Below are positions 14,727-60,407 of a stretch of DNA of 62,712 nt, in pieces. Position numbers and translations under genes: made by a program. Origin of the DNA: Microgenomates group bacterium Gr01-1014_16 (lineage in GTDB: Bacteria; Patescibacteriota; Microgenomatia; CAZETR01; Amesbacteraceae). Every line of letters starts with the position of its first letter. Position 1 is the first letter of the stretch. The stretch is taken from positions 1 through 62,712 of the forward strand of contig VMGA01000003.1 in assembly GCA_007376345.1 (NCBI GenBank), in the 5' to 3' direction. The notes below the pieces were generated by a model that was given only the letters and a program-made list of their open reading frames with translations, made no database searches and was not told where the DNA came from.

Positions 14727-14780
14727 CTAATCACCTCCTCACAAATTTAATATACATTTAATTGTAGCATATTTGAATCT

Positions 14781-14819: not shown

Positions 14820-14830
14820 TTTGATAAATT

Positions 14831-15559: not shown

Positions 15560-15562
15560 AAA

Positions 15563-15820
15563 ATGATCATAGCTATAAAAAAGTTCGGCACGACATTAGT
15601 TTCTCGGCCTTCCGGCAAAGAAGCGTGGTTGGCTTTTCAGCCCATTCTTAAAGATGTTTCAGATACCGAAGAGGTCGTCGTTGATTTCAGCGATGTCTTA
15701 GTCCTAGCCCCTTCATGGGCAGACGAATTTTTAACACCGCTCCGGAGTCGCTTCAATGACAAGGTAAAACTAATTAATACGGATAACGCTTCCGTCAAAG
15801 CCACCTTGGCGATACTTTAG
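15563..15820 (+). CDS. STAS-like DUF4325 protein
   Basis: 85 aa. VVVDFSDVLVLAPSWADEFL matches the C-terminal domain of 13341..14408. There is a 3-nt gap to the upstream kinase-like gene. Confidence 0.55.
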   Translation: MIIAIKKFGTTLVSRPSGKEAWLAFQPILKDVSDTEEVVVDFSDVLVLAPSWADEFLTPLRSRFNDKVKLINTDNASVKATLAIL

Positions 15821-16512
15821 CCCTCTATAGGATCCAGGGTTAAACATCCTGGAATAGCCAAGGATTCATCATACAGGCTTTGGTCTCCCATATATTCCTC
15901 CCAGGACTTAAAAAGATTCCTCAAATTTGTAAAGGTTTCCTCTCTGATGGAATCATCGAGGTAAGCAAACGGACAAACGTGTTCCGGCTTTTGGCCTCCT
16001 TTCAAAATCCCTATCTCCACACTTCCAAAGCCTGCCGGCGCCCCATGATTAAAATCGCTCACCTCCCCGACTATCTGGCCGGCCGTTACCTTATCCCCCA
16101 CTTTAACCTTGGGGTTTATCAAATGCTCCGTTTCATAAACCCATTTTTGCATTTTTCCGTCCGCCGTTACCTGGACCGAGAAATCCCCGCTCCAAAGAAC
16201 GGGTATTGCTGCCACTATCCCGTCCACGGTTGACCGGACCGGCGTCCCCAAGGGCACGACAAAAGTCGGCTGCGGATTATTTTTGGCCGGGTTATCATTG
16301 CCCGCTGGGATATAAAAACCATACTCCATAAAAAGTTTCCCGAACTGTAATTTCTCTTTGATAAATTCAAAGTCGGAAAACTCCACCCCTATGCCTTTTA
16401 ATTTTAAAGGCGGCTCATCCGGGTGTGGGATGTTACTCTGCCTAAACAGTGAAAACGTTATTGCGCCAATAACCAGAACCGTCGAGACACCCGCAAATAC
16501 CTTAAGTGGCAT
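15817..16512 (-). CDS. M23/LytM-like peptidase-domain protein (tentative)
   Basis: N-terminal TM helix. The C-terminal barrel-like segment VRSTVDGIVA...VKVGDKVTAGQIVGEV resembles the Peptidase_M23 / lipoyl-like fold. Confidence 0.4.
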   Translation of the reverse strand: MPLKVFAGVSTVLVIGAITFSLFRQSNIPHPDEPPLKLKGIGVEFSDFEFIKEKLQFGKLFMEYGFYIPAGNDNPAKNNPQPTFVVPLGTPVRSTVDGIVAAIPVLWSGDFSVQVTADGKMQKWVYETEHLINPKVKVGDKVTAGQIVGEVSDFNHGAPAGFGSVEIGILKGGQKPEHVCPFAYLDDSIREETFTNLRNLFKSWEEYMGDQSLYDESLAIPGCLTLDPIEG

Positions 16513-44254: not shown

Positions 44255-44920
44255 ATGGCCGATTTGGTCTACGCTTTCCTGGACGAGTCCCCATCCCTCA
44301 ATAGTTCCGACCTCTTTTTCTGCGTGGCCATAATCCTCACCGATCTGTCCACCCAAAAACCCCTTGCCAAAATCCTCAAAAAAGCCCGGGGCAGACTAGA
44401 CCGTTCCCATAAAACGTCTGCGGAAATCAAATTTCACAAAGCCTCCGCTGCCACCAAGCGCTACATTCTCTCCGAACTGGCTAATATCGATATCGAAATT
44501 GTTGCCACCGTCATCGACAAAAACCACCGTCAGGTTTCCGACACTCCAGCAAATTATGGCCTGGTCATTGGCGCCGCTGTCGCCCAGTGCCTTACCCTCC
44601 ATCCTAACCTAGCCGTCACCCACGACCGGCATTACACCAATCGGCAACAATACACCGAATTTGTCAATTCCGCCAACCAATCTCTCCAGGTTTCTTCCCG
44701 TAAGCCATCGAGCGTCTTCTTCTCTCCTCCCGCCGACAGTCAAGTCCAACCCTTAATTCAACTGGCCGATTTCGTCGCCGGCGCACTTAATTACAAATAC
44801 AACCGCAAAGATTCCCAATACTTCAACCTTATCCGCACTCTGATCAAAAAAGAGTTTGTGTTTAAATGGACAGAATTAAAAAGAGCGGCGACCCCCGGGC
44901 TCCGATTCTCACCCCGCTAA
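44255..44920 (+). CDS. DUF3800-family protein
   Basis: N-terminal YAFLDES and C-terminal PLIQLADFVAGAL are the DUF3800 hallmarks. Confidence 0.75.
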   Translation: MADLVYAFLDESPSLNSSDLFFCVAIILTDLSTQKPLAKILKKARGRLDRSHKTSAEIKFHKASAATKRYILSELANIDIEIVATVIDKNHRQVSDTPANYGLVIGAAVAQCLTLHPNLAVTHDRHYTNRQQYTEFVNSANQSLQVSSRKPSSVFFSPPADSQVQPLIQLADFVAGALNYKYNRKDSQYFNLIRTLIKKEFVFKWTELKRAATPGLRFSPR

Positions 44921-45023
44921 ACGGGGATTAAGGCCGCACAAGGCGGCCTAGAGACACCGGGACTTACTCGTCCGCTCTCCAACCGCTATTATATACTTCC
45001 CATCAATGCTAAACTATCGGTAG

Positions 45024-45881
45024 ATGAAAAAACTCCCCCTATTCCTACTTACACTCTTCTACTCTTCCACTCTTCTACTCTTATTTCCTACCCCCGCCCC
45101 CGCCGCCGACTGCATTCCCACTAGCTGGTGCAAAGATCCTTCCATTGGTTGTACTTCTGGAGAAACATACCGAGGAGATCTCACTTGTCCTGATCTGGGC
45201 TGGGGCACAAACGGATCCTGCTGCGTCCCAGTCGGGGTCCCAACCCCAGTTATTCCCCCCACTTGCCCAGGAACTTGCAAAACTGGATGTAACCCCCTCA
45301 CTGAAGATAGTTGGGGTACTTCCTCTTGCATGGTTACCGGCTCCACTCCATTTTGTTGCGTCCCAAAACCAACTGCTGTCCCCCCCCCCGCTGGTTGCGT
45401 AAATCCGATTTGCGGCTCTACTGGTTGTTCCTGTGCAGCGTCAGGTAAGCCCGCCCAGTGTTATGACAACAGTGTCTCTCCCCCAAAAATTGTCTTATGT
45501 TGTGACTCTATGTCTCAATGCACCCCAGGCACTACCCCTATTCCTGTCGGTAGCGGCGGAGGCGCTTTTGTATTTTGCGACGTCAACGGAAGCAAAGGTG
45601 TTCCCACGGCCCTCGGTTGTCTGAATATTACCGGCAAGCAGACAATTTCCCAGATCCTCGGCTGGGCGGTGGGAGTTGGAGGAGGCATTGCCTTCCTGCT
45701 CATTGTCTACTCCGGCTTCCAGATGGCCACAGCTAGTGGCGACCCCAAGCGCGTCAAAGCCAGCCAGGAACTATTGACCGCCGCCCTCGGCGGCCTCGTC
45801 CTCATCGTTTTATCAGTCGTCTTGTTAAACTTCATTGGTGTCAAAGTTCTTAATTTGGGCGGCCTCGGATTTGGCCCCTAA
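45024..45881 (+). CDS. T4SS-pilin-like (VirB2/TrbC-type) protein with a large Cys-rich N-terminal domain
   Basis: Signal peptide, an ectodomain of about 190 aa with many Cys, then the two-helix pilin module ...GGGIAFLLIVYSGFQMATASGDPKRVKASQELLTAALGGLVLIVLSVV. Confidence 0.55.
   Translation: MKKLPLFLLTLFYSSTLLLLFPTPAPAADCIPTSWCKDPSIGCTSGETYRGDLTCPDLGWGTNGSCCVPVGVPTPVIPPTCPGTCKTGCNPLTEDSWGTSSCMVTGSTPFCCVPKPTAVPPPAGCVNPICGSTGCSCAASGKPAQCYDNSVSPPKIVLCCDSMSQCTPGTTPIPVGSGGGAFVFCDVNGSKGVPTALGCLNITGKQTISQILGWAVGVGGGIAFLLIVYSGFQMATASGDPKRVKASQELLTAALGGLVLIVLSVVLLNFIGVKVLNLGGLGFGP
45048..45083 (+). repeat. CTCTTCTA/CTCTTCCA tract forming the signal-peptide core of 45024..45881
   Basis: Encodes LTLFYSSTLLLL. 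Confidence 0.65.
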
Positions 45882-45911: not shown

Positions 45912-46223
45912 ATGCGCCTCGCCCAACTTGATATCCCCAACCCGCCCATCCTTCAAAGACTGGAAGTCCCTTTCTCCGGAACTGAGGCTGTCACCAAACT
46001 CACCTCCCGCTTTCTCCTTTTCACCATCGCCGGCGCCGGGTTTGTTTTCGTCATCCAGGTCGTCATGGCCGGGTATAAATATTTGACCAGTCTGGGCGAG
46101 CCGGCCAGCATTCAATCCGCCACCAAGCAATTGTTACACGCCACAACCGGCCTGCTCGTCGTCATCACCACTTTTTTCATCATCCAAATCCTCGAAACCA
46201 TCTTCGGCCTTGACATTCTATAG
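45912..46223 (+). CDS. T4SS-pilin-like (VirB2/TrbC-type) small two-TM protein
   Basis: Two helices flank LTSLGEPASIQSATKQLLHATTGLLVV. Same module as its neighbours. Confidence 0.55.
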   Translation: MRLAQLDIPNPPILQRLEVPFSGTEAVTKLTSRFLLFTIAGAGFVFVIQVVMAGYKYLTSLGEPASIQSATKQLLHATTGLLVVITTFFIIQILETIFGLDIL

Positions 46224-46246
46224 ACATTGTCATACACTAAACACTG

Positions 46247-46513
46247 GTGAAGCACGTTGACTGGAATGTGGAAAAAAACTCCTGGCTCAAAAAAGAGCGT
46301 GGTGTTTCTTTCGAAGATGCCATTTCGGCAATCATCGAAGGTCATTTACTCGAAGTTTCTCCCCATCCCAATCCCAAATATGCCCACCAGCAAATTTTTA
46401 TAGTCGAGATGAACAAATATATCTACGTCGTCCCATTTGTGGAAGACGAAGAAAAAATTTTTCTCAAAACCATTATTCCCAGCCGTAAGGCCAAGAAAAA
46501 GTATCTAAAATGA
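46247..46513 (+). CDS. BrnT-like toxin
   Basis: W..EKNSWLKKERGVSFEDA...IFLKTIIPSRKAKKKY follows the BrnT/DUF497 pattern. Confidence 0.7.
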   Translation: MKHVDWNVEKNSWLKKERGVSFEDAISAIIEGHLLEVSPHPNPKYAHQQIFIVEMNKYIYVVPFVEDEEKIFLKTIIPSRKAKKKYLK

Positions 46514-46788
46514 AAAACTACAAACTCGATCCGGAAGAAAAAGCCATTTTAAAAGCCTACAACGCGGGTGAGTTTAAAACTATCAACGATCCCAAAGCGC
46601 TGGCTCGGTATCAGGAGTACGCCAAATACACCCTTCAACAAAAAACCAAAAACATCAACATTCGCCTAACGTTAAAAGACCTTCTGGATCTCAAAAACCG
46701 GGCCGCCCAATCCGGCCTCCCTTACCAAACTCTCGTTTCTCTCCTCATCCGCCAGTTCAATGAAAACAAACTCCCCCTGACAATTTAG
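46510..46788 (+). CDS. BrnA/CopG-type antitoxin
   Basis: NIRLTLKDLLDLKNRAAQSGLPYQTLVSLLI. It overlaps the toxin by 4 nt. Confidence 0.7.
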   Translation: MKNYKLDPEEKAILKAYNAGEFKTINDPKALARYQEYAKYTLQQKTKNINIRLTLKDLLDLKNRAAQSGLPYQTLVSLLIRQFNENKLPLTI

Positions 46789-46806
46789 GTGTATAGTTAA
46801 ACAACG

Positions 46807-47142
46807 ATGTCCAACCTTCTCGCCATCTCCATTCCCGACCAATTTTATCTCAACCAAACCGCCGGCGTCAAAAATATTAATTCCGTCGGCGCTCTCGTTT
46901 CCGTCATTCTCCCCAATGTCATGATCGCCGCCGGGGTTATCTTTTTCCTTCTTATTTTGGGCGGGGGTTTCGGTATGATCAAAAGCGCCGGGGCGGAAGC
47001 CAATCCCCAAATGGCCGCCAAAGCCAAGGCCGCCGTTACCTACGGCTTTGCCGGCTTCTTGATAGTTGTCACCGCCTACTTTATACTTCAATTAGTCCAA
47101 ACCGCCACCGGCGTTAATTTAAACAACCCAAATCTGCCATAA
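46807..47142 (+). CDS. T4SS-pilin-like small two-TM protein
   Basis: IAAGVIFFLLILGGGFGMIKSAGAEANPQMAAKAKAAVTYGFAGFLIVV. Confidence 0.55.
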   Translation: MSNLLAISIPDQFYLNQTAGVKNINSVGALVSVILPNVMIAAGVIFFLLILGGGFGMIKSAGAEANPQMAAKAKAAVTYGFAGFLIVVTAYFILQLVQTATGVNLNNPNLP

Positions 47143-47144
47143 CC

Positions 47145-47501
47145 ATGTTCGGAGTGTTCGGAACTATCGATAATCCTTTCACAACTCTGGGTGGCCCACT
47201 GGCCACTGCTGGTGCCGAAGGCCAAGGCCTCATTCTCATCCTCAACTCTCTCGTTAAATTCGTCATCGTCCTCGCCGGCCTGTATACTTTCTGGAATCTG
47301 ATAGCCGCCGGCTTCATGTTCATGTCCGCGGGCGGTGATTCCAAAGCCATCGGCAAGGCCTGGGACAAAATCTGGCAATCCCTCATTGGTTTATTACTAG
47401 TCGCGGGTTCGTTCGTGTTAGCCATCATCTTCGGCTATCTCATCTTCGGTCCCCAAAACGCCATGATTCTTATTCAACCCCAGATTTTCAAGCCTCAATA
47501 A
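47145..47501 (+). CDS. T4SS-pilin-like small two-TM protein
   Basis: FMSAGGDSKAIGKAWDKIWQSLIGLLLVAGS. Confidence 0.55.
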   Translation: MFGVFGTIDNPFTTLGGPLATAGAEGQGLILILNSLVKFVIVLAGLYTFWNLIAAGFMFMSAGGDSKAIGKAWDKIWQSLIGLLLVAGSFVLAIIFGYLIFGPQNAMILIQPQIFKPQ

Positions 47502-47503
47502 CT

Positions 47504-47914
47504 ATGAAATTACTTGCTCAAGGCGTCCCTCTCGGAAATATAAATGGTATTGGGCCGTTAGGTACTGTCGCCACCCAAACCGACGCCTTTGTCGCTTTTA
47601 CTACGGTTTTATCAACTACCGTCGGCGTCCTCACTGTCTCTGCCGGAATTTGGTTTATTTTTCAAATTTTTGGCGGATCTCTCCAATGGCTTACAAGTGG
47701 CGGAGACAAACAAGGATTAGAAGCCGCAAAAAAAAGAATTACCCATGCCATTGTTGGTTTGCTCATGGTCGTCTTATCCTACGCCCTCATATCAATTATC
47801 GGCCTTATATTTGGGTTAAATATTCTATCCCCAATAGGATCCCTATTAGGAATTAATCTTCCCGGCGGAGGCGGTGGCGGAGGTACTTGTCCAATAATCG
47901 GAGTACCTTGTTAA
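47504..47914 (+). CDS. T4SS-pilin-like protein with a Gly-run and Cys tail
   Basis: LTSGGDKQGLEAAKKRITHAIVGLLMVVLS, then GGGGGGTCPIIGVPC. Confidence 0.55.
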   Translation: MKLLAQGVPLGNINGIGPLGTVATQTDAFVAFTTVLSTTVGVLTVSAGIWFIFQIFGGSLQWLTSGGDKQGLEAAKKRITHAIVGLLMVVLSYALISIIGLIFGLNILSPIGSLLGINLPGGGGGGGTCPIIGVPC

Positions 47915-47925
47915 CCATAAAGATT

Positions 47926-48264
47926 ATGAAGCTGTTAGCTCAAGGGTTAGACATCACCAACCCCGCCCTTCTTCCAGCCGTCGGTACTGGCGATGGTCGC
48001 ACCATTCTTCAGACATTTTTAACCAACTTCATCACTATCGGTTTCGGTATTGGCGCTATTGTTTTGGTATTTATGCTCATTTCCGGCGGAATTAAGTTTA
48101 TTGCCGCCGGATCAGACAAAGATGCAGTTCAACATGCCTCCAAACAATTAACCCACGCCCTGATCGGCATCGTTATTCTCCTTTCCGTCTACGCCATCGT
48201 GGCTTTAATCGGCGGCGTCTTCGGCATCAACATCCTCCAGGTGAACTTTCCGGTAATTCAATAA
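47926..48264 (+). CDS. T4SS-pilin-like small two-TM protein
   Basis: Start at MKLLAQGLD, which parallels MKLLAQGVP of the previous gene. IAAGSDKDAVQHASKQLTHALIGIVILLS. Confidence 0.55.
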   Translation: MKLLAQGLDITNPALLPAVGTGDGRTILQTFLTNFITIGFGIGAIVLVFMLISGGIKFIAAGSDKDAVQHASKQLTHALIGIVILLSVYAIVALIGGVFGINILQVNFPVIQ

Positions 48265-48265
48265 T

Positions 48266-48814
48266 ATGGCCGATCTTGATCTTACCCGTCTTCCCTCTGC
48301 CCAGCTCCAAAAGCTCACCCTTATCAAGCCCACCAATCTCTCTTCGGCCATCATCCAATTCATGTTTGTCATCGCCGGTGTCCTTTTTTTCTTATACTTC
48401 CTGACCGGCGCCGCCCAATGGGTTGCCTCCGGTGGCGACAAAGAAGGCCTGGACAAGGCAAGTAAAAAAATCAAACACGCCCTCATCGGTCTGTTTATCG
48501 TCTTGGGCATCTACGGTTTCGGTGCCATCTTAAATGGCCTTACCGGCGTCGATCTTTTCCGTGTCTGCTTCCCGGGACCAACCACTTCCGCATTTTCCTG
48601 TCCCCCTTCCGGCATCGGTTCCGGCGGCGGAGGAGGCGGCGGAGGAGGAGGTGGCCCGCCCGGAACATCCGCCTGTCGTTGCTTCAATGGAGGCTGCGCA
48701 TCCGTAGGCCAAATTGGTTATTTTAATGGAGGTTGTTACCGTTGCACCACAACACAGTGGGATGGACCTATTGGCGGAAGTTGTCCGCCCATTTCCTGCG
48801 GTACTTGCAATTAG
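48266..48814 (+). CDS. T4SS-pilin-like protein with a poly-Gly linker and a C-terminal Cys-rich knot
   Basis: VASGGDKEGLDKASKKIKHALIGLFIVLG, then G11, then CRCFNGGCASVGQIGYFNGGCYRCTTTQWDGPIGGSCPPISCGTCN. Confidence 0.55.
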   Translation: MADLDLTRLPSAQLQKLTLIKPTNLSSAIIQFMFVIAGVLFFLYFLTGAAQWVASGGDKEGLDKASKKIKHALIGLFIVLGIYGFGAILNGLTGVDLFRVCFPGPTTSAFSCPPSGIGSGGGGGGGGGGGPPGTSACRCFNGGCASVGQIGYFNGGCYRCTTTQWDGPIGGSCPPISCGTCN

Positions 48815-48865
48815 CTATATTTACCCCTAAACTTGAACTAACTTTGAAAGGAGGTGAGACAATAA

Positions 48866-49270
48866 GTGACTAAACTTCACAAAACTTTAGGTTACGCCGC
48901 GGCGTTTGGCAGCCTTTTGGCCGTCTCGCCTCTCTCGGCTCTGGCCCAAGGAGTCCAGGATATCAATCTGGCCCTTCCCGGTGGTAGCAGTTTTTCCAAT
49001 GTCGTCACCTGGAACGCTACCCGGATCGTCCAGGCTCTGATCAATATCATCTTGGTGACCGTCGGCCTGATCGCCTTTTTCTGGTTGTTAATCGGCGGTG
49101 TCCAATGGATTATGGCCGGAGGTGACAAGGAAGGGACCGAAAAAGCCAGGAAGAGAATCACGGCCGCCCTCATCGGGTTGGTTATCGTTTTCTCTGTCTT
49201 TGCTTTCACCCAAATCCTGTCCGCCTTCTTTGGTATCAACTTGCTGTTCTTCAGCATCAACGCTATCTAA
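48866..49270 (+). CDS. T4SS-pilin-like protein with signal peptide (GTG start)
   Basis: Strong SD AAAGGAGGTGA lies 8 nt upstream of the GTG. IMAGGDKEGTEKARKRITAALIGLVIVFS. Confidence 0.55.
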   Translation: MTKLHKTLGYAAAFGSLLAVSPLSALAQGVQDINLALPGGSSFSNVVTWNATRIVQALINIILVTVGLIAFFWLLIGGVQWIMAGGDKEGTEKARKRITAALIGLVIVFSVFAFTQILSAFFGINLLFFSINAI

Positions 49271-49354
49271 TTGGGTACGCTGCCCCCTTCGCTCTTCGAA
49301 GCCTTGGCGAAGAAGAGGCCGGGGGTGGCGTGGAAAGAGGGAAAGTAAAACAAT

Positions 49355-49639
49355 ATGCCCGCCAAGCTATCTAATCTTGATTCAGTCTTTTCTTCAATCT
49401 TAAACGTCGCTCTGGCCGGAGTCGGCATCGGCGTCGTCATCATGTTTATCGTCGGCGGATATCAATTTATGATGGCCGGTGGGGACAAAGAGGCCGCCGC
49501 TCGTGCCCGTCTCACCCTGACTTACGCCGTCATCGGCCTCATCGTCGCTCTTTCCGCCTGGATCATCCTCGCTCTCCTGGGCAATTTCCTAGGGATCAAC
49601 TTCACTCTCTTCACCGTCTGCTGGGGCACAGGGTGTTAA
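49355..49639 (+). CDS. T4SS-pilin-like small two-TM protein with a CxxxC tail
   Basis: MMAGGDKEAAARARLTLTYAVIGLIVALS...FTVCWGTGC. Confidence 0.55.
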   Translation: MPAKLSNLDSVFSSILNVALAGVGIGVVIMFIVGGYQFMMAGGDKEAAARARLTLTYAVIGLIVALSAWIILALLGNFLGINFTLFTVCWGTGC

Positions 49640-49675: not shown

Positions 49676-49900
49676 ATGCCAAAAACATTCACCCACATCA
49701 ACGTCGATCCGGAAATCCTCGGCGGCAAACCAGTCATTCGCGGCACCCGCATTCCGGTTTACGTCATCGTCAATCTCACGGCACAAGGTCAAAATACAAA
49801 ATATATCCTCAAAAACTACCCCGACCTGACCCCCCAAGACATCACCGAAGCCCTCCAATATGCCGCTTGGACCACCCAGCTTTCGGAAATGTATGCCTAA
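49676..49900 (+). CDS. DUF433 antitoxin-like protein
   Basis: DPEILGGKPVIRGTRIPV...YPDLTPQDITEALQYA is the DUF433 signature. Confidence 0.75.
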   Translation: MPKTFTHINVDPEILGGKPVIRGTRIPVYVIVNLTAQGQNTKYILKNYPDLTPQDITEALQYAAWTTQLSEMYA

Positions 49901-50264
49901 ATTACTCGTTGACGAGAATCTCTCTCCAAGATTAACAGTGTTTCTCTTTGATTTGGGCTACGAAGCTAAACATGTCCGAGACATTAGCCTTAAAGGCCAA
50001 CCGGATTACAAAATCGTCGCCTGGGCCAAGAAAAACAATCACATCATAATTACCCGCGATTTAGGCTTCGGCCTCACCTACTCCCAATCGTCCAATCCAT
50101 CGGGAATTATTCTCCTGCGCTCAAAAATCGACACCATCGAAACCCTCCAAGACATCCTCCATCACCTCCATACCGAAAAAGTACTCTCAAATCCCGAAAT
50201 TGACCGGTCATTGATCATCGCCACTCCCACCAAAACCCGCATCATAAATCTCAATATTGCCTAA
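49893..50264 (+). CDS. DUF5615 (Mut7-C/PIN-like) toxin-like protein
   Basis: Start at MPKLLVDENLSPRL. The ..IIITRDLGF pattern matches DUF5615, the usual partner of DUF433. Confidence 0.7.
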   Translation: MPKLLVDENLSPRLTVFLFDLGYEAKHVRDISLKGQPDYKIVAWAKKNNHIIITRDLGFGLTYSQSSNPSGIILLRSKIDTIETLQDILHHLHTEKVLSNPEIDRSLIIATPTKTRIINLNIA

Positions 50265-50292
50265 CTGCTATTTATGCTAATATGGAACTAGG

Positions 50293-50382
50293 ATGAAAAA
50301 ACTCCTGCTCCTCATCTCCTCCATCCTTTTAGTCGCCGTAGCCTTGGCGAAGGCTGACCCCGCCTCCGCCGCCATGATATAA
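50293..50382 (+). pseudogene. orphan signal-peptide remnant (29 codons)
   Basis: MKKLLLLISSILLVAVALAKADPASAA followed by MI-stop. It ends in the 13-bp cgcctccgccgcc that also encodes the PASAA cleavage region of 51036..52397. Confidence 0.4.
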
Positions 50383-50389
50383 TTTCCCC

Positions 50390-50653
50390 ATGACCTACAA
50401 ACTCTACGATCGGATTGAGGTCAATCCCAAGATTTCTTCCGGCAAGCCTGTAATTGCTGGCACCAGAATTGCCGTCGGGTTCATCATTCAGCTTTTAGCC
50501 AACGGCTGGACCATCAACCAAATTATGAAAGGCTATCCTAATCTCAAAAAGGATGATGTGTTAGCCTGCCTCGAATACGCCCGGCAAACAATCGAAACCC
50601 AGTCCTTTCTCCCCCTCGGCTCTTCCCCTTCGCTGCAAGTAGCCCAAACATGA
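50390..50653 (+). CDS. DUF433 antitoxin-like protein (second copy)
   Basis: NPKISSGKPVIAGTRIAV...YPNLKKDDVLACLEYA. Confidence 0.75.
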   Translation: MTYKLYDRIEVNPKISSGKPVIAGTRIAVGFIIQLLANGWTINQIMKGYPNLKKDDVLACLEYARQTIETQSFLPLGSSPSLQVAQT

Positions 50654-51018
50654 AGTTATTAGCCGATGAAAACGTTTCCCGCTATCTCATCGACGAACTC
50701 AAACATTTAGGATACGCCGTCAGGGATCTCAAACAAATCTCTCCCCGTGCCTCTGATTCTCAAGTCGCCCAAATAGCAGTTTCCGCCGCCGAAATTCTCA
50801 TCACTCACGATTCGGACTTGGTCAGCCTTCTTTCCGGCAAAAAATATCCCAGCCTCAAACTCATCCACCTGGACACTCCCAACCTTACGGTCAACCAATG
50901 CCTCCAAATAGCCAGGTTACTACACGAGAACGGATTCCTCCAAAAAGAATTTACATTTCTCCAGGTTCATCTCCATGGCCAATTACTCTCTATCTCTTTA
51001 CATCCCCCCACCCAATAA
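50650..51018 (+). CDS. DUF5615 (PIN-like) toxin-like protein (second copy)
   Basis: MKLLADENVSRYL...ILITHDSDL. It overlaps the DUF433 gene by 4 nt. Confidence 0.7.
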   Translation: MKLLADENVSRYLIDELKHLGYAVRDLKQISPRASDSQVAQIAVSAAEILITHDSDLVSLLSGKKYPSLKLIHLDTPNLTVNQCLQIARLLHENGFLQKEFTFLQVHLHGQLLSISLHPPTQ

Positions 51019-51035
51019 GTTATTGTATACCTGCC

Positions 51036-52397
51036 ATGAAAAAACTCGCCGCAACTCTTCTTACACTTTTATACTTTTACACTGTTACACTTTCGTCCGC
51101 CCCCCCCGCCTCCGCCGCCTGGTACAACCCCACCACCGAAGAATTCTACGGCAAAGTTTACGGCACCAACCCCGTCAGCTCCAATGATGAAATCTTTGGC
51201 GAACGCTACACATTTGCCCAAGTCAATTGGATAGTAAATAGCTTAGCTATTATCTTCGCTCCTCCAAACATGACCCCTACCCAATTTCTCGACATTATTA
51301 GAGGAATTATCGCTTCTCTTGTCGCAGGCACACAACCAACCTTCCAACAATACGCCCAACTGGGTGTTCCTGGAATTCTCATGGGCGCCATAAACGAAAC
51401 TTACACCAACCCCCCGGCTTCCGGCATAAAATACGTCAGCGACACCCTCGCCAAGTTTGATCCCGCACCTCCGGTCTACGCCCAAGGGTACGGCTATAAA
51501 TCCCTCGAAATCGCCCAAACTCTCTGGAAAGCCTCCCGCAATATGGCCTATCTTCTTATGATTGTCCTTTTGGTTGTTTCTGGCTTCATGGTCATGTTCC
51601 GCGTCAAAATCAACCCCCAAACAGCAGTTACTCTCCAACTAATGATTCCCAAAATCATCATCACTTTACTACTGGTCACTTTCTCCTATGCAATTGCCGG
51701 CTTTGTCATCGATCTCATCTATGTCGTCATCACTTTCATTATCTCGATGCTCGCCATGCCCGGCATCGCCGTCATTACCGACGCCCCCAGAGCCATCCGG
51801 TTCTTCACGGGGGGATATATTGGTCCAATTGTTTACTTCATCGCCCCCTGGATAATGATCGCGTTTCTTGGTGCGGTAGGTGGTGGCCTTATAGGTCTTG
51901 TTGGCGGACCACTCGGAGCACTAATAACCGGAGCAATAGTCCCCATCATTTCCCTTATTGTTATGATCTTTCTTGTCTGGACTCTCTTCAAAATCTGGTG
52001 GCTCCTCCTTAAAACTTACATCGTTCTTCTGTTTTCAATTATAGTTGGTCCCTGGCAAATCATGCTGGGGTTACTTCCGGGTCAATCTGGTTTTGGCCCT
52101 TGGTTAAGAAATATAATTGCCAACGCCTCCGTCTTCGTCGCCGTCCCTATAATGTTCCTTATCAACATGCTTTTTTGGAAACCCGGATTCGGCTTAGACG
52201 CTTTGGCTGGACTCTTTAGTCCTGTGGGTGTAGTCCTTCCCTCAACTGGTGTCAGCCCCGGTCTTCCCTTTGTGAACGGCGGCGGAATTCTCAACTTAGC
52301 CCTTGGTTACGCCGTCCTTGCCCTCACCCCCAAAATCGCCGAAATCATCAGGGATGCCCTCAAAGTCCCAAATGGGAATCTTAACTGGCACTGTTAA
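51036..52397 (+). CDS. polytopic membrane protein, VirB6/TrbL-like (tentative)
   Basis: Start at MKKLAATLLTLLYFYTV (signal peptide). An ectodomain of about 150 aa is followed by six or more Gly-rich TM helices. It sits directly after the pilin array. Confidence 0.4.
   Translation: MKKLAATLLTLLYFYTVTLSSAPPASAAWYNPTTEEFYGKVYGTNPVSSNDEIFGERYTFAQVNWIVNSLAIIFAPPNMTPTQFLDIIRGIIASLVAGTQPTFQQYAQLGVPGILMGAINETYTNPPASGIKYVSDTLAKFDPAPPVYAQGYGYKSLEIAQTLWKASRNMAYLLMIVLLVVSGFMVMFRVKINPQTAVTLQLMIPKIIITLLLVTFSYAIAGFVIDLIYVVITFIISMLAMPGIAVITDAPRAIRFFTGGYIGPIVYFIAPWIMIAFLGAVGGGLIGLVGGPLGALITGAIVPIISLIVMIFLVWTLFKIWWLLLKTYIVLLFSIIVGPWQIMLGLLPGQSGFGPWLRNIIANASVFVAVPIMFLINMLFWKPGFGLDALAGLFSPVGVVLPSTGVSPGLPFVNGGGILNLALGYAVLALTPKIAEIIRDALKVPNGNLNWHC
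51060..51095 (+). repeat. TTTTACAC-type tract forming the signal-peptide core of 51036..52397
   Basis: Encodes LTLLYFYTVTLS. Confidence 0.75.
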
Positions 52398-52407
52398 ATC
52401 GTAATTA

Positions 52408-55083
52408 TCACCTTCCAGAGAATACAGAGGTTATTCCCGAAGCCTTAAGAATAGACTGAATCTTTTTGTCCAGAGAATTATCCACGTACTTTTCCCCCGT
52501 CAATGGATCGACCACGTGCTTCAACCTCGAGTTGGTCATATTACTAATAACTGCAAAAAGGTAGGGTCGTTTTTCCAGCCTTAAATTACGAGAGTCCTGA
52601 TCTACGCCCAAACAATTTGCCTCAATCCACCCCAACGATTCGGGTGTATTAATATATCTTCCCAAATACTTCCCCACCTCGCTTCCCCTTATCTTCGCAA
52701 GCGCGTTTGCCAAATCAACTCCCCAAGCCTCTTCCATAGCTGAAGTGGTTTTTGCAGGAAGAGCCCTCTTTTTCTCATCCCCGGTAACATATTCATTAAC
52801 CGTCGTCACTGAACTCCACAAGTCACCATAATAACCCTTAAATTCTTGAGCCTCCACTTTATCCCACTGGATAGCCTCACCATTAATCAACCTTTCAGCC
52901 AACGAAGGGCCTCCTTTTTCACCTATTACCTCCAACATGCTCACAAACATCGTCTCCGGAAACGGTGTCATTCCAGGTTGACCTAGCTTTTCTCGAATGC
53001 TTGGCTGCATTCCGTTCTCAGCCAACCAGTTACCTAGCGACCCACCCCAGCTCTCAATAGTTTCAGCCGCTTCTTCATCAGTCTTATGAAGCTTCAGTTT
53101 AGCTTTGATCTTCGCCAAAGGATGAAACTCTGTTCTGACTTGTTCTGAATAAACCGGTGTTCCTGGGGGTAATTTTCTATCTTTATCGGCAGACTCTGCC
53201 AAATGGGAAAGAAATATCAAATTCCAAGCATTTGCCACCTTGCCTTCGGCCACCACTTTAGGTTCCACATTAAACATCCCAGCCTCGTTGGCAATCCCCT
53301 CATGAGCTATCAAGCCCATAGCAACTCCCTCTTTTGCTTTGGTAAATTTGGAAATATCACAAAACTCTTCCATTGCTTCCTTGTTTTTAAACCTCACCCT
53401 AAATGTTCCGTTCGGCTCTGGAGAATCGTCTTGTTCAAAATACCTCTGAACTAATTGCTCCAAAGCCTCCCTTCCCCCAGCCGTTTCGTAAAACTGCTGA
53501 ATATCCAATTTGCCAATTGCCGGAAGAGCTTCATTTTTTTGTACTGCCTCTAAATTTGTGGGTCCATAAAGTTTTTTAACATATGCGCCATTTGCCAACG
53601 ATTCGTATAGTTCTGCCTGGTCTTTCGCCTCTTGATCCAGCTCCTGATACCACCGGGGAGGAAAGTCCGTCCAGTTGGTATGAGCGGCCGATTGGCCTTT
53701 TATTCTTCTTATAAAATCACCGTAACCCGTCCCTCTCCCCATTGCTCTCTCCAAAGCCTTAGTTATTGCATCCGGATCCTGACCTGTTATTGGCGGCTGA
53801 CCGTGTGATACACCGGCTTCTCGTTTTGTAGTTCCCCCACTACCTCCACCGCCTCCTCTCAAAATCTCCAACGCCTTCAACATCGCCCCTTCTGCACTTC
53901 CAGCTTTGCAATACGAACATGCAGCCCCCGTTTCCTTAGGAGCACCACATCGACTACACGTCTTTTCCCTCTCCACAACCGCATTAAATTGATCCTCTAT
54001 ACTTTTTCCTTTCTTCGCCTCTGCTGCAATTTTCTCCATCGTCTCCCTCAAAAGTTTCCTCTCCTCAGTATCCCCCTGATTTCTCTCCTCTTGTTTTTCT
54101 AAAACGGTGGTCACTCTATCCAAAATCTTCAGCAGCGCCCCCTCTTGTCCATTATTCGCAGCCTCCGTAACCACCGACTCCGCCGGAACCGCAGGTGCCG
54201 CCGGCGCCGCTTCAGTTTCACTGGCTTCTCTAGCCGCCCCCCCCGCCGGCCTTGCCGATTCTACCATCGGTCTACCTTCTTCTTTCATCCTCCTTCCCAA
54301 ATTTCTGTCTGCTTCATATTGTTTCAACAACAAATCCAACGCATCCCCTGCCTTTTCAATTACAATACCAAGTGCAACCGTCGCCGCTTTGTCTACCAAC
54401 GGATTTTGCCACCACTCTTTTTCAGGATTTCCCTCCGGCGCCTGCCGCGCAGATGAACCGGTCGTCTCCTCTTCGTCTCTTTTATTATCACCCCCCCCGG
54501 CTTCTCTTGCCGCTTTCACCCTCATCTCCCACACGTTCATATCCCAAGTATCGCTATTGATCTGTCCGCTCACTGACCCCACCGCGTCAAGCACATCCTG
54601 TCTCGGGCTTAGGCTTCCCCGTTCATGTACCTGAGCCGCCAATCTTACCATCTCCCCCCCCACCCATCCCCCAACTTTATCAGCAACCCCACTTTCCAAT
54701 AATCCGTCCGCCACCAATTTGTCTAATATCTTTTGGGCCTCCCCTTCTGCCCCCGGCGCCGCTTTCAATAATGCTTTAGCGATTTCACCCCCCCTTCTTT
54801 CCGCTCCAATGGGAACATTTGCTAGTGCCGTCTTTGCCTCGTTAATTGCAATTTCAGGCAACCTCAGCTGCCCAGCAATATTGCTCACCTGCCCAACTTC
54901 ACCTCTGATCCTCGTCAGTTCGTCAGGATCCCCCCGGGCAGCCATTGCCTCATCCAGCTTTCTCAAATAAGGAAAGTCCATCCTCGCTGCTTTCACAAAG
55001 CCTTCGGTTATATCAAATTCCCCGGACTTGGGTGCTCCTTTCGCGCCATTTTCTTGTGGAGCCGTCATATTACTTGCGGGCAT
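52408..55083 (-). CDS. large (891 aa) hypothetical protein with no recognisable enzymatic domain and a central zinc ribbon
   Basis: Long uninterrupted ORF. CSRCGAPKETGAACSYCK (CxxC..CxxC), a Gly run, and Ala/Glu-rich linkers. No TM helix or signal peptide seen. Confidence 0.6.
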   Translation of the reverse strand: MPASNMTAPQENGAKGAPKSGEFDITEGFVKAARMDFPYLRKLDEAMAARGDPDELTRIRGEVGQVSNIAGQLRLPEIAINEAKTALANVPIGAERRGGEIAKALLKAAPGAEGEAQKILDKLVADGLLESGVADKVGGWVGGEMVRLAAQVHERGSLSPRQDVLDAVGSVSGQINSDTWDMNVWEMRVKAAREAGGGDNKRDEEETTGSSARQAPEGNPEKEWWQNPLVDKAATVALGIVIEKAGDALDLLLKQYEADRNLGRRMKEEGRPMVESARPAGGAAREASETEAAPAAPAVPAESVVTEAANNGQEGALLKILDRVTTVLEKQEERNQGDTEERKLLRETMEKIAAEAKKGKSIEDQFNAVVEREKTCSRCGAPKETGAACSYCKAGSAEGAMLKALEILRGGGGGSGGTTKREAGVSHGQPPITGQDPDAITKALERAMGRGTGYGDFIRRIKGQSAAHTNWTDFPPRWYQELDQEAKDQAELYESLANGAYVKKLYGPTNLEAVQKNEALPAIGKLDIQQFYETAGGREALEQLVQRYFEQDDSPEPNGTFRVRFKNKEAMEEFCDISKFTKAKEGVAMGLIAHEGIANEAGMFNVEPKVVAEGKVANAWNLIFLSHLAESADKDRKLPPGTPVYSEQVRTEFHPLAKIKAKLKLHKTDEEAAETIESWGGSLGNWLAENGMQPSIREKLGQPGMTPFPETMFVSMLEVIGEKGGPSLAERLINGEAIQWDKVEAQEFKGYYGDLWSSVTTVNEYVTGDEKKRALPAKTTSAMEEAWGVDLANALAKIRGSEVGKYLGRYINTPESLGWIEANCLGVDQDSRNLRLEKRPYLFAVISNMTNSRLKHVVDPLTGEKYVDNSLDKKIQSILKASGITSVFSGR

Positions 55084-55098
55084 AAACCCATTTTAACA

Positions 55099-55587
55099 TC
55101 ATTCTTTAACCATCCAGTTTGTTTCTGAGGAAACCTTGTCTGTCACTGGCGATTTTCCCTGAGTCAAGTCCACACCTGAACCAGAAAATCCCATTGTTCT
55201 CGCTTCTTTGACCGCTTTTCTCTTTTCCCACGCCTCATCGACAGCTATAGGGTTAGCAACTTTTTGCAAAGCCCAGATTGACACTGCTCCCAATACGGCT
55301 GTCGCTAAACTCTTACTTACCAAGCCGTTATCCAATGCCCCCGCATCCACTCCCCTAAATACAAAAACACCATCCGGGATAATTCCTTCTTCAGGTATTT
55401 TACTAACTATAAAATACATCGCACCGGACGCAGCCGCCCCCAGTAATCCCTTGGTCCAAGGACTGACTCTTGGATCTTTCACCAAATCAGCCGCTACCAT
55501 AATGTTATCCAAAACAAACTCCCCCAATTGATCTACAACTTTGGCGGTATCCTGAAACTCTTTTAGTATTCCATCCAATCCACTCAT
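55099..55587 (-). CDS. hypothetical protein, DUF1232(YkvA)-like membrane segment (tentative)
   Basis: LVKDPRVSPWTKGLLGAAASGAMYFIVSKIPEEGIIPD resembles the DUF1232 core. It lies 15 nt upstream of the 891-aa gene. Confidence 0.4.
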   Translation of the reverse strand: MSGLDGILKEFQDTAKVVDQLGEFVLDNIMVAADLVKDPRVSPWTKGLLGAAASGAMYFIVSKIPEEGIIPDGVFVFRGVDAGALDNGLVSKSLATAVLGAVSIWALQKVANPIAVDEAWEKRKAVKEARTMGFSGSGVDLTQGKSPVTDKVSSETNWMVKE

Positions 55588-55618
55588 CCCCCAAATCTAC
55601 CACAATACTACAGGATAG

Positions 55619-55813
55619 TCAAGACTTTTGCTTCAATGATTTCCTTACCTCATTTAGTCCAAGTGCAACCAACCCCACCCCCAAAGCTAGCTTCTTTCGA
55701 TTCTCCCACGCAAGTCTAGCCAAATTTTCAAGCTTAAATATAAAAATATTCGCCCTATCTCTCACCTCAGCCCTCAATTCCCCATTTTTCCGCCAAGCCT
55801 CAAATTTTTCCAT
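55619..55813 (-). CDS. small hypothetical protein with a C-terminal TM helix
   Basis: 64 aa, KKLALGVGLVALGL. It is tightly packed within the operon. Confidence 0.35.
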   Translation of the reverse strand: MEKFEAWRKNGELRAEVRDRANIFIFKLENLARLAWENRKKLALGVGLVALGLNEVRKSLKQKS

Positions 55814-55819
55814 AAACTA

Positions 55820-56173
55820 CTATTTATCAGCCAACAATAAAGCAAGATACGCTCCTCCACTACAAAGAGCACACGCCCCGAGCGAACACCCCAAAGCCAC
55901 CTCCGCCAACGTCCTGCCACACCCTTTCTTCTTTTCTACTTTCGGCATCTCAACTGGAGCTGCGTGACTTCTGTGCGTTACCCGATGAACTGAATCGCTC
56001 ACTGCTTCCGCTGCCCCACCCAACACCGCCTGGGCTTTTAATTTCAGTGCCTCCAATGGTTCAAAAATAAATCTTTCGTACTCTTCGTTAGTCAAAGTTC
56101 CCTGACTAAAATCAGCCGCTTCACCTGGAAACATATGAAAAACGTGATCCGGAGGATATTCCTTTCTTTTCAT
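55820..56173 (-). CDS. small hypothetical protein with a Cys-rich C-terminal TM helix
   Basis: Start moved to MKRKEYPPDH, because the upstream codons are the translated 22-bp repeat motif. C-terminus GCGRTLAEVALGCSLGACALCSGGAYLALLL. Confidence 0.4.
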   Translation of the reverse strand: MKRKEYPPDHVFHMFPGEAADFSQGTLTNEEYERFIFEPLEALKLKAQAVLGGAAEAVSDSVHRVTHRSHAAPVEMPKVEKKKGCGRTLAEVALGCSLGACALCSGGAYLALLLADK

Positions 56174-56208
56174 TTCGCAATAATATACTATCGGTCGGAT
56201 TTTCGCAA

Positions 56209-56415
56209 CCCCTTCCCACACTACAGGCCGCAACGATTTTTCAACCTAGGGCGCACCAAACCCCGAACCAGGAGCGTCGAATAGCGCCGTGCCCGCCAAA
56301 GAGTCGCTCCGTGAGCCGCAGTTCAAATGAACTAAGGCGAACGGTAAGATCTGGCGGGAGTGTGAGGGCGTCCTTTTTTCCGTCCGCTATTTTGGACGAG
56401 CAAAAAAGCGGACAA
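56209..56415 (+). repeat. non-coding module of about 200 bp, copy A (22-bp motif ... conserved stem-loop 56382-56413)
   Basis: Shares cccgaaccaggagcg and gagtgtgagggcgtccttttttccgtc.gct.ttttggacgagcaaaaaagcggacaaa with copy B. Confidence 0.65.
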
Positions 56416-56444
56416 ATCAAATCCAAAGATGATATTCTAAATTA

Positions 56445-57055: not shown

Positions 57056-57060
57056 CCCCG

Positions 57061-57272
57061 CCCTCCCCACACTACAGGCTGCAGCGATTTTTCCTATCTA
57101 TTCGTTTCTACCCGCAAGTGGGAGCGTTAAACGCAAAATTCAAAAACACCTTGCTTGGTGAGGGCGTAATATAAACCCTGAACATAATCAATTTTTGAAT
57201 TTTGCGTAGCGAGCCTTGCGGCGTGCTTTCTTTGGTTCATTTCTTTCGCACGAGCAAAGAAATGAACAAAAA
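57061..57272 (+). repeat. non-coding module of about 200 bp, copy C (22-bp motif ... stem-loop 57235-57267)
   Basis: Same architecture as copies A and B, but the stem sequence differs (GTTCATTTCTTT/AAAGAAATGAAC) around a loop ending ACGAGC. Confidence 0.55.
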
Positions 57273-57789: not shown

Positions 57790-57820
57790 AAAACCATTAT
57801 ACTACACCAGAAAAAATCCT

Positions 57821-57842
57821 CCCCTCCCCACACTACAGGCCG
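57821..57842 (-). promoter_or_regulatory. 22-bp conserved motif (minus strand CGGCCTGTAGTGTGGGGAGGGG) followed by TAGTATAAT and the ATG of 57535..57789
   Basis: One of six copies (56209, 57061, 57821, 58728, 59531, 60164). In five of them a -10-like box and a start codon lie downstream on the minus strand (within 40 nt in four copies, about 110 nt in the 59531 copy); the 57061 copy has no downstream minus-strand gene. Confidence 0.45.
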
Positions 57843-57868
57843 CAAGATAGTTTCGACTCTTCTGATTA

Positions 57869-58702: not shown

Positions 58703-58727
58703 GCAAAAATTATAACAGAAATCCTAA

Positions 58728-58860
58728 CCCCTCCCCACACCACAGGCCGGATGAATAATGTGTCTCTTCTAATTAGCCCTCTCCTGAAATCAGGAGAGGG
58801 ACGAAGGGTGAGGTACAGGGCGGGTGAGGTAAACCCCCAACCTATATCTGCACCCCATAC
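58728..58860 (+). repeat. 133-bp composite repeat, copy A (22-bp motif plus palindromic element E11 plus tail)
   Basis: Nearly identical to 60164..60296 apart from a few mismatches near the 5' end. Its right end abuts a truncated MNT gene. Confidence 0.8.
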
Positions 58861-59414: not shown

Positions 59415-59530
59415 ACACTCATTATAGCCGCCACGCTCAATAATAACAAAAGTGGCGGATATATACCCGTCGAAATGCGTTCATACGCATAACATTTACC
59501 TCATGATGGGTATATACCAGAAAATCCTAA

Positions 59531-59748
59531 CCCCTCCCCACACTACAGGCCGCAATGATTTTTCAATCTAAGACCCGAACCCCGAACCAGGAGCGCAATG
59601 AGCGCGAGCAAAGTTCAATGCTTGGCGAAGAACGTAATACAAACTTCGAGCATAACTGCTTTGTAAAGCGCGAATAGCGAGTGTGAGGGCGTCCTTTTTT
59701 CCGTCTGCTTTTTTGGACGAGCAAAAAAGCGGACAAAACGATCTACTT
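59531..59748 (+). repeat. non-coding module of about 200 bp, copy B (22-bp motif ... stem-loop 59703-59734)
   Basis: See copy A. It lies between a degraded toxin stop and the HEPN gene 59061..59414. Confidence 0.65.
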
Positions 59749-60149: not shown

Positions 60150-60407
60150 TCACATCCCCGATTCCCCCCACCACACTACAGGCCGGATGAATAATGAGTC
60201 TCTTCTAATTAGCCCTCTCCTGAAATCAGGAGAGGGACGAAGGGTGAGGTACAGGGCGGGTGAGGTAAACCCCCAACCTATATCTGCACCCCATACGGCT
60301 CTGTTTTTTGCATAGGAGCCAAATAAATAAGCTTGGGATACGGGAATTTGCTTTTTTACCAACTCCACAAAACGTCTGGCAACTAAAATTGCACTATCAG
60401 TACTCAT
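60150..60407 (-). pseudogene. MNT nucleotidyltransferase remnant truncated after the GS motif by a repeat element
   Basis: AYLFGSYAKNRA, then the translated repeat (60164..60296). The DxD part is absent. Confidence 0.55.
60164..60296 (+). repeat. 133-bp composite repeat, copy B (22-bp motif plus palindromic element E12 plus tail)
   Basis: Nearly identical to 58728..58860. Its right end abuts the MNT remnant 60150..60407. Confidence 0.8.

Follow-up and report, generated by a model that had tools for sequence, protein, structure and literature searches.

In a 62,712-nucleotide stretch of DNA from Microgenomates group bacterium Gr01-1014_16 (contig VMGA01000003.1; this whole stretch will be referred to as the window), four open reading frames (ORFs) are packed on the minus strand, and the largest encodes a protein of 891 residues that resembles no named family. 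The question raised by this locus is which cellular system this protein belongs to, and what it may do there. The four ORFs are co-directional, with gaps of 6, 31 and 15 nucleotides, in agreement with an earlier note on this DNA. Gene A (55820-56173) encodes 117 residues, gene B (55619-55813) 64 residues, gene C (55099-55587) 162 residues, and gene D (52408-55083) the soluble, modular protein of 891 residues. The window represents a piece of the chromosome of a Patescibacterium, with DnaG, RpoD, tmRNA, tRNAs and SpoIID present. As the earlier note had also described, the four genes are located between a pilin/VirB6-like array on one side and an island of HEPN/MNT toxin-antitoxin (TA) genes on the other. 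The analysis presented here links D, with high confidence, to the Patescibacterial type IV secretion system (T4SS) cluster, in which its gene occupies a position to be referred to as the slot.

For all four ORFs, a codon log-odds test scores the annotated frame highest among the six. None of the four proteins has a match in Pfam, PHROGs, NCBIfam, PADLOC or PDB sequences, apart from noise-level matches to Cas10, and D is therefore a protein without a recognizable domain in these libraries, as had been thought. It is not, however, the orphan that it had also been thought to be. An exhaustive HMMER scan, covering 1.84 billion representatives, finds 82 relatives of D at E<1e-3, and A and C have homologues as well (see below). 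The C-terminal ~430 residues of D (the D-C domain) are shared by 75 of these relatives, and the N-terminal ~190 residues (the N-module) by the other 7, which also have the coiled coil and the CxxC...CxxC zinc ribbon of D. Among the HMMER relatives, no representative besides D has the N-module and D-C together. A search of a word index with D returned only D itself, and the D-C alignment as the query returned 6 proteins. This index misses relatives at 45% identity, so that 'ORFan' would be a false conclusion.

The gene directly next to D encodes a VirB6-like polytopic membrane protein (50898-52397, plus strand, 499 residues). Its likely true start is the ATG at 51036 (MKKLAATLL...), as suggested by a signal peptide. 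The two genes are convergent, and their stop codons are 10 nucleotides apart. Loci with relatives of D were drawn from GTDB genomes, JGI/ENA metagenomes and Logan contigs. With duplicate contigs counted once, there are 16 distinct loci (L002, L003, L005, L006, L007, L008, L010, L011, L012, L016, L018, L019/20, L021/22, L023, L024 and L025-30). In all 16, a homologue of D-C or of the N-module is immediately convergent with a homologue of the VirB6-like protein, and pilin genes are present. In the loci fetched through D-C homologues, the D-type gene ends 0-25 nucleotides from the convergent VirB6-like stop codon, or overlaps it. PrgI and a VirB4-type ATPase are located on the other side of the D-type gene in L011, L020, L021 and L025-28. 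In L011, where the D-C domain is 45% identical to that of D, these two proteins match PF12666 (PrgI) and P-loop_TraG, AAA_10 and DUF87 (VirB4). The genes are thus not an orphan or free-standing operon, as D sits in a fixed position of the T4SS cluster in every related locus examined.

A second search was anchored on the VirB6-like protein and is independent of D. Among at least 534 relatives of this protein in GTDB species genomes, the best 80 Microgenomatia loci were analyzed. A convergent ORF of at least 300 residues abuts the VirB6-like stop codon in 73 of the 80, and 6 of the 7 exceptions have no flank. The slot ORFs of the 73 loci are 370-1300 residues in length, nearly all without a predicted transmembrane segment. 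All pilin ORFs in the 80 loci are upstream of VirB6 (316 upstream and 0 downstream). PrgI is found in 53 and VirB4 in 44 of the 80 loci, directly beyond the slot gene and divergent from it. The order of the cluster is therefore pilin array, secreted protein(s) and VirB6-like gene on one strand, then the slot gene facing them on the other strand, and then PrgI/VirB3 and VirB4, again on the first strand. By this conserved order, D is the slot gene of the window.

The pilin array of the window has eight VirB2-like genes (45912-49639, plus strand), upstream of the VirB6-like gene. The source record gives a weak match to PF18895 (T4SS_pilin) in this region. Homologous arrays are present in all the related loci, and in those fetched through D-C homologues, secreted proteins and an array of 6-8 VirB2-like genes are found beyond the VirB6-like gene. 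In the window, the pilin array and the VirB6-like gene are set apart by the insertion of two TA-like pairs on the plus strand (74 and 134 residues; 87 and 122 residues; 49676-51018). The VirB6-like protein has its highest similarity to proteins of Candidatus Amesbacteria (class Microgenomatia), with 44-52% identity. It has no match to TrbL/VirB6 (PF04610), and one of its 11 homologues has such a match at E=5.5e-4. In other loci, 8-10 transmembrane segments are predicted for the homologues, and a place behind the pilins agrees with the assignment. With one match among the 11, the name VirB6-like is reasonable, although not proven. VirB6 has been reported as 'scarce' in Microgenomatia (PMC12102498), unlike the family found here, with its at least 534 relatives. 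Outside the cluster, the flanking genes vary among the D loci, and include those for FtsH, DUF6909, ATP-grasp and DnaJ-like proteins.

The D-C domain (52486-53766; residues ~440-866) is mostly α-helical and is found in 75 representative clusters. Its conserved columns give the motif AWN-x8-ESADxxR ... EQxRxxxHPxxK ... WGGxxGxW ... PFP. The AlphaFold2 model of D-C, produced with a 76-sequence alignment, has a predicted local distance difference test score (pLDDT) of 91.1 and a predicted template modeling score (pTM) of 0.90. A search with this model through PDB and BFVD, with the program Foldseek, finds no structural neighbor (best E 0.3, TM≤0.15), and the D-C profile finds nothing among PDB sequences. 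D-C is thus a new domain, with a confidently predicted fold that has no match in PDB or BFVD. A Pfam scan of 53 relatives of D, from both module families, gives zero domains. Together, the library searches and the Foldseek comparison give no match of D to a well-characterized family. A catalytic reading of the motif, as lysozyme/SLT-like ('ES', 'AWN'), was rejected, as its order and spacing are unlike those of SLT, His224 is not universally conserved and there is no fold match. No catalytic assignment is possible.

The N-module (54439-55011; residues ~25-215) is helical, and is common to P0007, P0017, P0029-31, P0034 and P0035. The zinc ribbon CSRCGAPKETGAACSYC (53908-53958; residues 376-392) is located after an Ala/Glu-rich coiled-coil linker. 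It was correctly recognized in the earlier note. It has the form CSRC-x9-CSYC in D, and CxxC-x9-11-CxxC is kept in P0017, P0029, P0031, P0034 and the 849-residue protein of L026. The ribbon has weak profile matches to the zinc-ribbon ribosomal proteins L40e and L32. The last 25 residues of D form the C-terminal tail VDNSLDKKIQSILKASGITSVFSGR (52411-52485), of which the last 10 are predicted to be disordered (pLDDT<50). The single-sequence AlphaFold2 model of full-length D has a pLDDT of 40.

No transmembrane segment is found in D (maximal Kyte-Doolittle mean over 19 residues of 1.36), and no signal peptide is seen. The only string in D with a likeness to a Walker A motif is AEAKKGKS (residues 354-361), a chance occurrence in the non-conserved coiled-coil linker. 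D has no AAA or P-loop match in Pfam, and no match to an ATPase or enzyme family in the Pfam and NCBIfam/PDB-type library searches. Homology to the described T4SS components (VirB1-11, VirD4, Prg/Trs) is also absent in the Pfam, NCBIfam and PDB-sequence searches.

The proteins encoded in the slot evolve at a far higher rate than VirB6. BLAST sorts the 73 slot proteins into 22 clusters. The pairs that BLAST can detect amount to 14% at a VirB6 identity of 40-50%, and to 41% at 50-70%. Iterated profile search with jackhmmer brings 12 of the 73 into the D-C family, and hhalign links two BLAST clusters (together 23 slot proteins) to D-C, while most of the 73 are recruited by neither program. Between the window and L026, the identity is 56% for VirB6 and 62% for C, as compared to 28% for the N-module, and the C-terminal domain there is of a divergent type (type-2). 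By VirB6, the N-module loci are as close as those of the D-C subfamily (42-56% identity), and even so their N-modules are only 26-32% identical. The type-2 C-terminal domains are remote homologues of D-C, recognized by profile comparison only (hmmsearch E 1e-8, hhalign probability 93.9%). A previous profile comparison of D-C with a poor type-2 alignment of 4 sequences had been negative, and a better subset reversed this outcome. By these comparisons, the slot is fixed in position and hypervariable in content, like the pilins, for which the mean identity within one array is ~25% (PMC12102498).

The small genes upstream of D follow one of its modules. Gene C encodes a small protein with two hydrophobic segments. 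C-like genes are found directly upstream of N-module proteins in L019/20, L021/22, L023, L024 and L025-30, so that P0029, P0034, P0017, P0031 and the 849-residue protein of L025-30 are each preceded by one. These genes encode 139-167 residues and end 15-30 nucleotides before the N-module gene, and the phmmer E values within the family are 2e-7 to 8e-35. One relative, P0098, is 62% identical to C and is found on at least 24 contigs. A DUF1232-like membrane segment had been proposed for C. However, C itself is without a DUF1232 (PF06803) match at E≤5, and among five C-like homologues a single one matches, at E=0.18.

Gene A encodes a protein with a tail anchor and a KKKGCG motif. In or near its C-terminal helix there are four Cys residues, where five had been counted before. 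It is homologous to L021_106 (phmmer E 2.6e-5), which links it to a 115-residue ORF in L024 (E 4e-12) that shares the KKKGCGC/Cys-rich tail. By eye, a 123-residue ORF in L025-30 also has a tail of the A type. An A-like gene is therefore present in L021/22, L024 and L025-30. Hidden Markov models of the C-like and A-like families have no matches outside the N-module loci, and C-like genes are absent from the loci with D-C only. The N-module, in turn, is confined to loci that also have C-like, and often A-like, genes. By these relationships, A and C, which encode small membrane proteins, are inherited together with the N-module of D. In 11 D-C loci, homologues of A, B and C are absent, and a first conclusion that the three genes are not conserved was dropped after the contexts of the N-module homologues had been fetched.

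Gene B has an in-frame codon score of 0.22, with negative scores in the other frames. No homologue of B is found in any fetched locus, and only 43-51 nucleotides separate the A-like and C-like genes in the related loci, so that B is seen in this window only. Its hydrophobic stretch is weak (Kyte-Doolittle mean of 1.13 over 17 residues), and the description of B as tail-anchored is doubtful as a result. The earlier note had placed the small membrane-protein genes with D. This holds for A and C, as partners of the N-module, and not for B, nor for the loci that have D-C alone.

The promoters divide the four genes further. A consensus scan finds the promoter of C, and probably also of D, at 55594-55622 (minus strand; TTGACT-17-TGgTAGATT), with the ATG 6 nucleotides downstream, which is of the leaderless type. 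The sequence TTGACT-at-CCTGTAGTA-N-TGGTATAAT-N6-ATG is also found before the C-like genes of L020, L021, L023 and L024 (4 of 4). The start of D itself is preceded by TGTTAAAAT-N6-ATG. In the region upstream of A (56180-56248, minus strand), the promoter core CCGATAGTATATTAT at 56180-56194 is followed 6 nucleotides downstream by the ATG, and one copy of a 42-nucleotide repeat of the TA island (56207-56248) lies ahead of this core. The A-like genes of L021 and L024 have GGCCGATAGTGTATAAT-N8-ATG. An extended -10 box, TGnTAnAAT, is located 5-8 nucleotides before the start of nearly all slot genes (L002-L023; 55084-55098 in the window) and of the C-like and A-like genes, and a Shine-Dalgarno sequence is absent upstream of almost all of them. 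Transcripts in these genomes may as a rule be leaderless. With its own -10 box at A, the conserved promoter at C and TGTTAAAAT at D, the locus has probably two or three transcription units, namely A(-B) and C-D, possibly with an extra start at D, all of the leaderless type. The co-directional packing that had suggested one four-gene operon is real, but the single operon is probably not.

What the slot protein does is less firmly indicated than where it is encoded. T4SS effectors are known with basic tails, such as the VirE2/VirF type of Agrobacterium, and as toxins with an XVIPCD, such as the X-Tfe proteins of Xanthomonas, with the X-Tfi proteins as cognate immunity proteins. More generally, the C-terminal signals of VirB/D4 substrates are positively charged and unstructured. 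In the D-C family, the last 25 residues have a mean net charge of +4.2, as compared to -0.5 for the remaining protein, and 78% of the tails have a net charge of +3 or more. The slot protein is soluble, modular and fast-evolving, it is transcribed separately from the machine genes, and it usually has a basic tail. Moreover, the Patescibacterial T4SS is essential, has pilin arrays and has no nearby coupling protein or relaxase (PMC10633639, PMC12102498), and it has been proposed to export proteins for this reason (PMC10633639; PMC12102498). Based on these features, we tentatively favor the slot protein as a passenger of the T4SS, that is, an effector or another translocated, host-facing factor.

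In such a mechanism, the slot protein would be delivered to a translocon of VirB4, PrgI and VirB6, with its basic C-terminal tail as the recognition signal. A and C, at the membrane, would be dedicated docking, chaperone or immunity partners of D. Rapid divergence and domain swapping would represent adaptation to different host bacteria, as with the variable pilins. A narrower version, advanced with more reserve, is that the slot proteins, including D, are hypervariable effectors of new fold that are injected into or displayed to hosts, with A and C as loading or immunity partners. D is firmly tied to the T4SS cluster; its role is inferred, and translocation as a substrate is the weaker step. 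The earlier note had expected a role in defense, in conjugation or secretion, or as an effector, from the genomic context. The direction of a secretion accessory or effector is the part that has survived, and that of defense has found no support from PADLOC or from relatives in phages, plasmids or viruses.

The likeness to known effectors is partial. Like VirE2, VirF and X-Tfe proteins, the slot proteins are soluble, modular and fast-evolving and are encoded beside machine genes, and most of those in the D-C family have a basic C-terminus, with that of D predicted to be unstructured at its end. The small companion genes A and C just upstream of D also have a parallel in X-Tfe-type effectors. 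Unlike these proteins, D has no XVIPCD, known effector domain or recognizable toxic domain, and there is no coupling protein to read its signal. In place of a variable repertoire, there is one copy of D at one fixed position.

Several observations weigh against a passenger. One copy at a strictly fixed position over deep divergence is unusual for effectors. The rule on T4SS signals comes from diderm VirB/D4 systems that possess a coupling protein, a component not seen in the present clusters. Over the 73 slot proteins, the basic tail is weak (+1.6, as compared to +0.9 for decoys, p=0.03), and the tail of D itself has a net charge of only +2. Within the D-C subfamily, D-C and VirB6 diverge at a similar rate (43-45% and 46-51% identity, respectively, in one comparison, and 26-29% and 31-35% in another), and this co-divergence looks more like that of a co-inherited core component than of a typical effector. 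Finally, PrgI and VirB4 are not adjacent to D in the window, where the TA island is followed by RlaP and then by a gene that is SHMT/GlyA-like by eye.

Some of these observations would be better explained if D were a cytoplasmic subunit or adaptor of the T4SS, either as a lineage-specific substitute for the missing type IV coupling protein (T4CP) or VirB11, or as a factor in pilin extraction or assembly. Such a subunit would be held at the membrane by a basic or amphipathic tail, and in this sub-lineage also by A and C. A single gene that keeps its place amid the machine genes (73 of 80 loci) would agree with this, as would the divergence of D-C in step with VirB6 inside its subfamily and the co-inheritance of the membrane proteins A and C with the N-module. 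These clusters have neither T4CP nor VirB8 (PMC12102498), and the compact D-C fold is predicted with confidence and bears a motif patch of strong conservation, as would befit a conserved interaction. The tails of many slot proteins also resemble the amphipathic helices of MinD/FtsA type (for example, LLKRLFGYVF), with a hydrophobic moment above that of decoys (p=9e-5). The amphipathicity in the D-C family is only moderate, however, and gives weak support to membrane targeting.

D has no conserved NTPase motif. Core parts of a machine rarely diverge beyond detection when the VirB6 proteins of two genomes are 40-50% identical. At least 22 sequence clusters occupy the slot, most of them without profile similarity to D-C, and the slot gene is always transcribed separately and against the machine genes. 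Comparisons with known components point both ways as well. Like VirD4 and VirB11, D is a predicted cytoplasmic protein, in a T4SS cluster that is otherwise without one, and association with the membrane through partners or the tail is possible. Unlike them, it has no P-loop NTPase domain, transmembrane anchor or match in Pfam, NCBIfam or PDB. The accessory genes of monoderm MPF-FATA systems (PrgF, TrsD, TrsJ, Gbs1347/1350; PMC12102498) are likewise lineage-specific and kept next to virB4/virB6, but D differs from their products in its size and its soluble, modular architecture, and no sequence relationship to them is detected in Pfam/NCBIfam/PDB-type libraries. Overall, we consider a subunit or adaptor, the main rival of the passenger reading, somewhat unlikely.

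A function unrelated to secretion, for example that of a regulator or nucleic-acid binder acting through the zinc ribbon, with the gene trapped between virB6 and prgI, is improbable. D has no homology to known T4SS components, its gene is in the opposite orientation with its own promoter, and the zinc ribbon together with a basic tail could bind nucleic acid. The pair of D and VirB6 is also kept in the window although PrgI and VirB4 are not adjacent. On the other hand, the ribbon is restricted to the N-module subgroup, and the position of the slot gene is kept at a VirB6 identity of ~30% while the outer flanks differ. Such persistence in the small, rearranging genomes of the candidate phyla radiation (CPR) usually means functional coupling.

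That the four genes form a defense or TA-like cassette of the neighboring HEPN/MNT island is very improbable: they directly adjoin the island and share its 42-nucleotide upstream repeat, and MNT/HepT or HEPN pairs are located just upstream in L007, L008/9 and L025-30 too, but PADLOC gives only Cas10 noise in the coiled-coil linker of D (E=0.014-0.024, 11-12 bits) and nothing for A, B and C, zero relatives are found in phage, plasmid and viral-contig collections, D-type genes stay beside VirB6 in dozens of loci without a TA island, and the TA pairs are variable insertions that also occur between pilins and VirB6.

The cluster and its slot gene can be set beside what has been described for Patescibacteria. 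The T4SS cluster of Southlakia epibionticum ML1 comprises SEML1_0006-0019 (Wang et al. 2023, PMC10633639), and the T4SS of the group has been surveyed (Quinonero-Coronel et al. 2025, PMC12102498). As in these systems, the present cluster has an array of divergent VirB2-like (PF18895) pilins, a VirB6-like protein and, in related loci, PrgI/VirB3 and a VirB4 ATPase, and in both ML1 and the present cluster a nearby relaxase and coupling protein are absent. The ML1 cluster also has large, uncharacterized, essential proteins, for example SEML1_0011 (998 residues), between PrgI and VirB6. By description, which is the basis of this comparison, the machine genes of ML1 are all on one strand, unlike the convergent slot gene, and SEML1_0011 carries a permease-type KEGG orthology assignment. 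The two papers and a 2025 review of T4SS (PMC12857230) describe pilin arrays, VirB3, VirB4, VirB6 and uncharacterized large proteins, and do not mention the slot gene, D-C, the N-module or the A/C partners.

Other features of the cluster were noted during this analysis. VirB4 is encoded by two ORFs in L025-L027 and in ~40 of L031-L110, a TraC-like N-terminal part of ~215 residues and a P-loop part of ~600 residues, and by a single ORF of 794-810 residues in L011 and L021. Two ORFs of the window were considered as its VirB4 and PrgI and rejected. The first (31719-34103, 794 residues) has no similarity to the VirB4 of L011 and no Pfam match. The second, at the contig end, has no significant BLAST similarity to PrgI and looks by eye like a serine hydroxymethyltransferase (SHMT). 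Among the proteins of the pilin region, that of 45024-45881 (plus strand, 285 residues) has a long Cys-rich and Pro/Gly-rich extracellular extension, with many CxxC-like spacings, on a pilin-like core of two transmembrane segments. The pilin of 48266-48814 (plus strand, 182 residues) has an extracellular extension with a poly-Gly run and a Cys-rich tail, on a core of the same kind. Directly upstream of the pilin region, Rfam gives a match to the DUF3800-III RNA at 44882-44978 (minus strand, 71 bits, E 3e-15). This match is antisense to, and just downstream of, a 221-residue ORF (44255-44920, plus strand), and overlaps its end. In L003, the FtsH gene next to the T4SS locus of a Shapirobacteria genome (171-3395) has a LAGLIDADG homing endonuclease intein in its AAA domain.

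The TA island and the region upstream of A share the 42-nucleotide repeat mentioned above, and the repeated upstream motif of the earlier note is therefore real. It is present in five copies (56207-56248, 57058-57099, 57819-57860, 58726-58767 and 59529-59570), with the minus-strand core TTGCGGCCTGTAGTGTGGGGAGGGG, and may function as a site for a regulator or as a promoter module. Its core GGCCTGTAGTG is similar to the spacer CCTGTAGTA of the conserved C-like promoters and to GGCCGATAGTG of the A-like promoters in other genomes. Instead of facing a gene, the 57058 copy is directed into the 3′ end of a HigB/HigA-like pair on the plus strand. Two further pairs of intergenic repeats, near-identical at 97%, are found in the TA island. 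One is 133 nucleotides long (58728-58860 and 60164-60296) and contains the palindrome CCCTCTCCTGAAATCAGGAGAGGG. The other is 59 nucleotides long (56358-56416 and 59679-59737) and has a GTCCGC...GCGGAC hairpin between runs of A and T. These repeats suggest duplicated cassette boundaries or bidirectional terminators. The junctions that hold TA-like pairs in the window are occupied in related clusters (L025-L029) by MNT/HEPN pairs and by 23S_rRNA_IVP genes, which are weakly bAvd-like. L025-28 repeat the layout of the window, in that BrnT, MNT/HEPN and MNT/HepT pairs are located upstream of their A-like gene. Small selfish cassettes appear to have a hotspot in the T4SS cluster.

The top strand of the whole window is extremely C-rich, with a GC skew of about -0.3, also within plus-strand genes. 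The skew reaches -0.58 at 39818-41389 and is near 0 at 12001-16000, that is, it is lost at ~12-16 kb. It creates long spurious plus-strand ORFs opposite real genes, for example at 54107-54634 opposite D. A lack of this C-richness had been seen by eye in the region of the four genes, and would have spoken for foreign DNA. The skew there is -0.372, as compared to -0.303 for the window, which contradicts such a lack, and the top strand of the region is, if anything, more C-rich than that of the window overall.

Among T4SS, that of Patescibacteria is the first to have been shown to be essential to its own carrier, and its cargo, and how it works without a nearby coupling protein, are not known (PMC10633639, PMC12102498, PMC12857230). 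The slot gene is an undescribed and widely conserved element of this known but poorly understood secretion system. The VirB6 that had seemed to be missing from Microgenomatia is present but divergent. The slot proteins and their motifs provide a testable list for what the T4SS of CPR bacteria moves and for its cytoplasmic side. D is this genome's version of a large soluble slot protein found in hundreds of ultra-small (Microgenomatia/CPR) bacteria, and is a candidate for a cargo or a cytoplasmic part of the system. If the slot proteins are indeed translocated, a secretion system on which many ultra-small epibionts depend would have its first family of candidate cargo.

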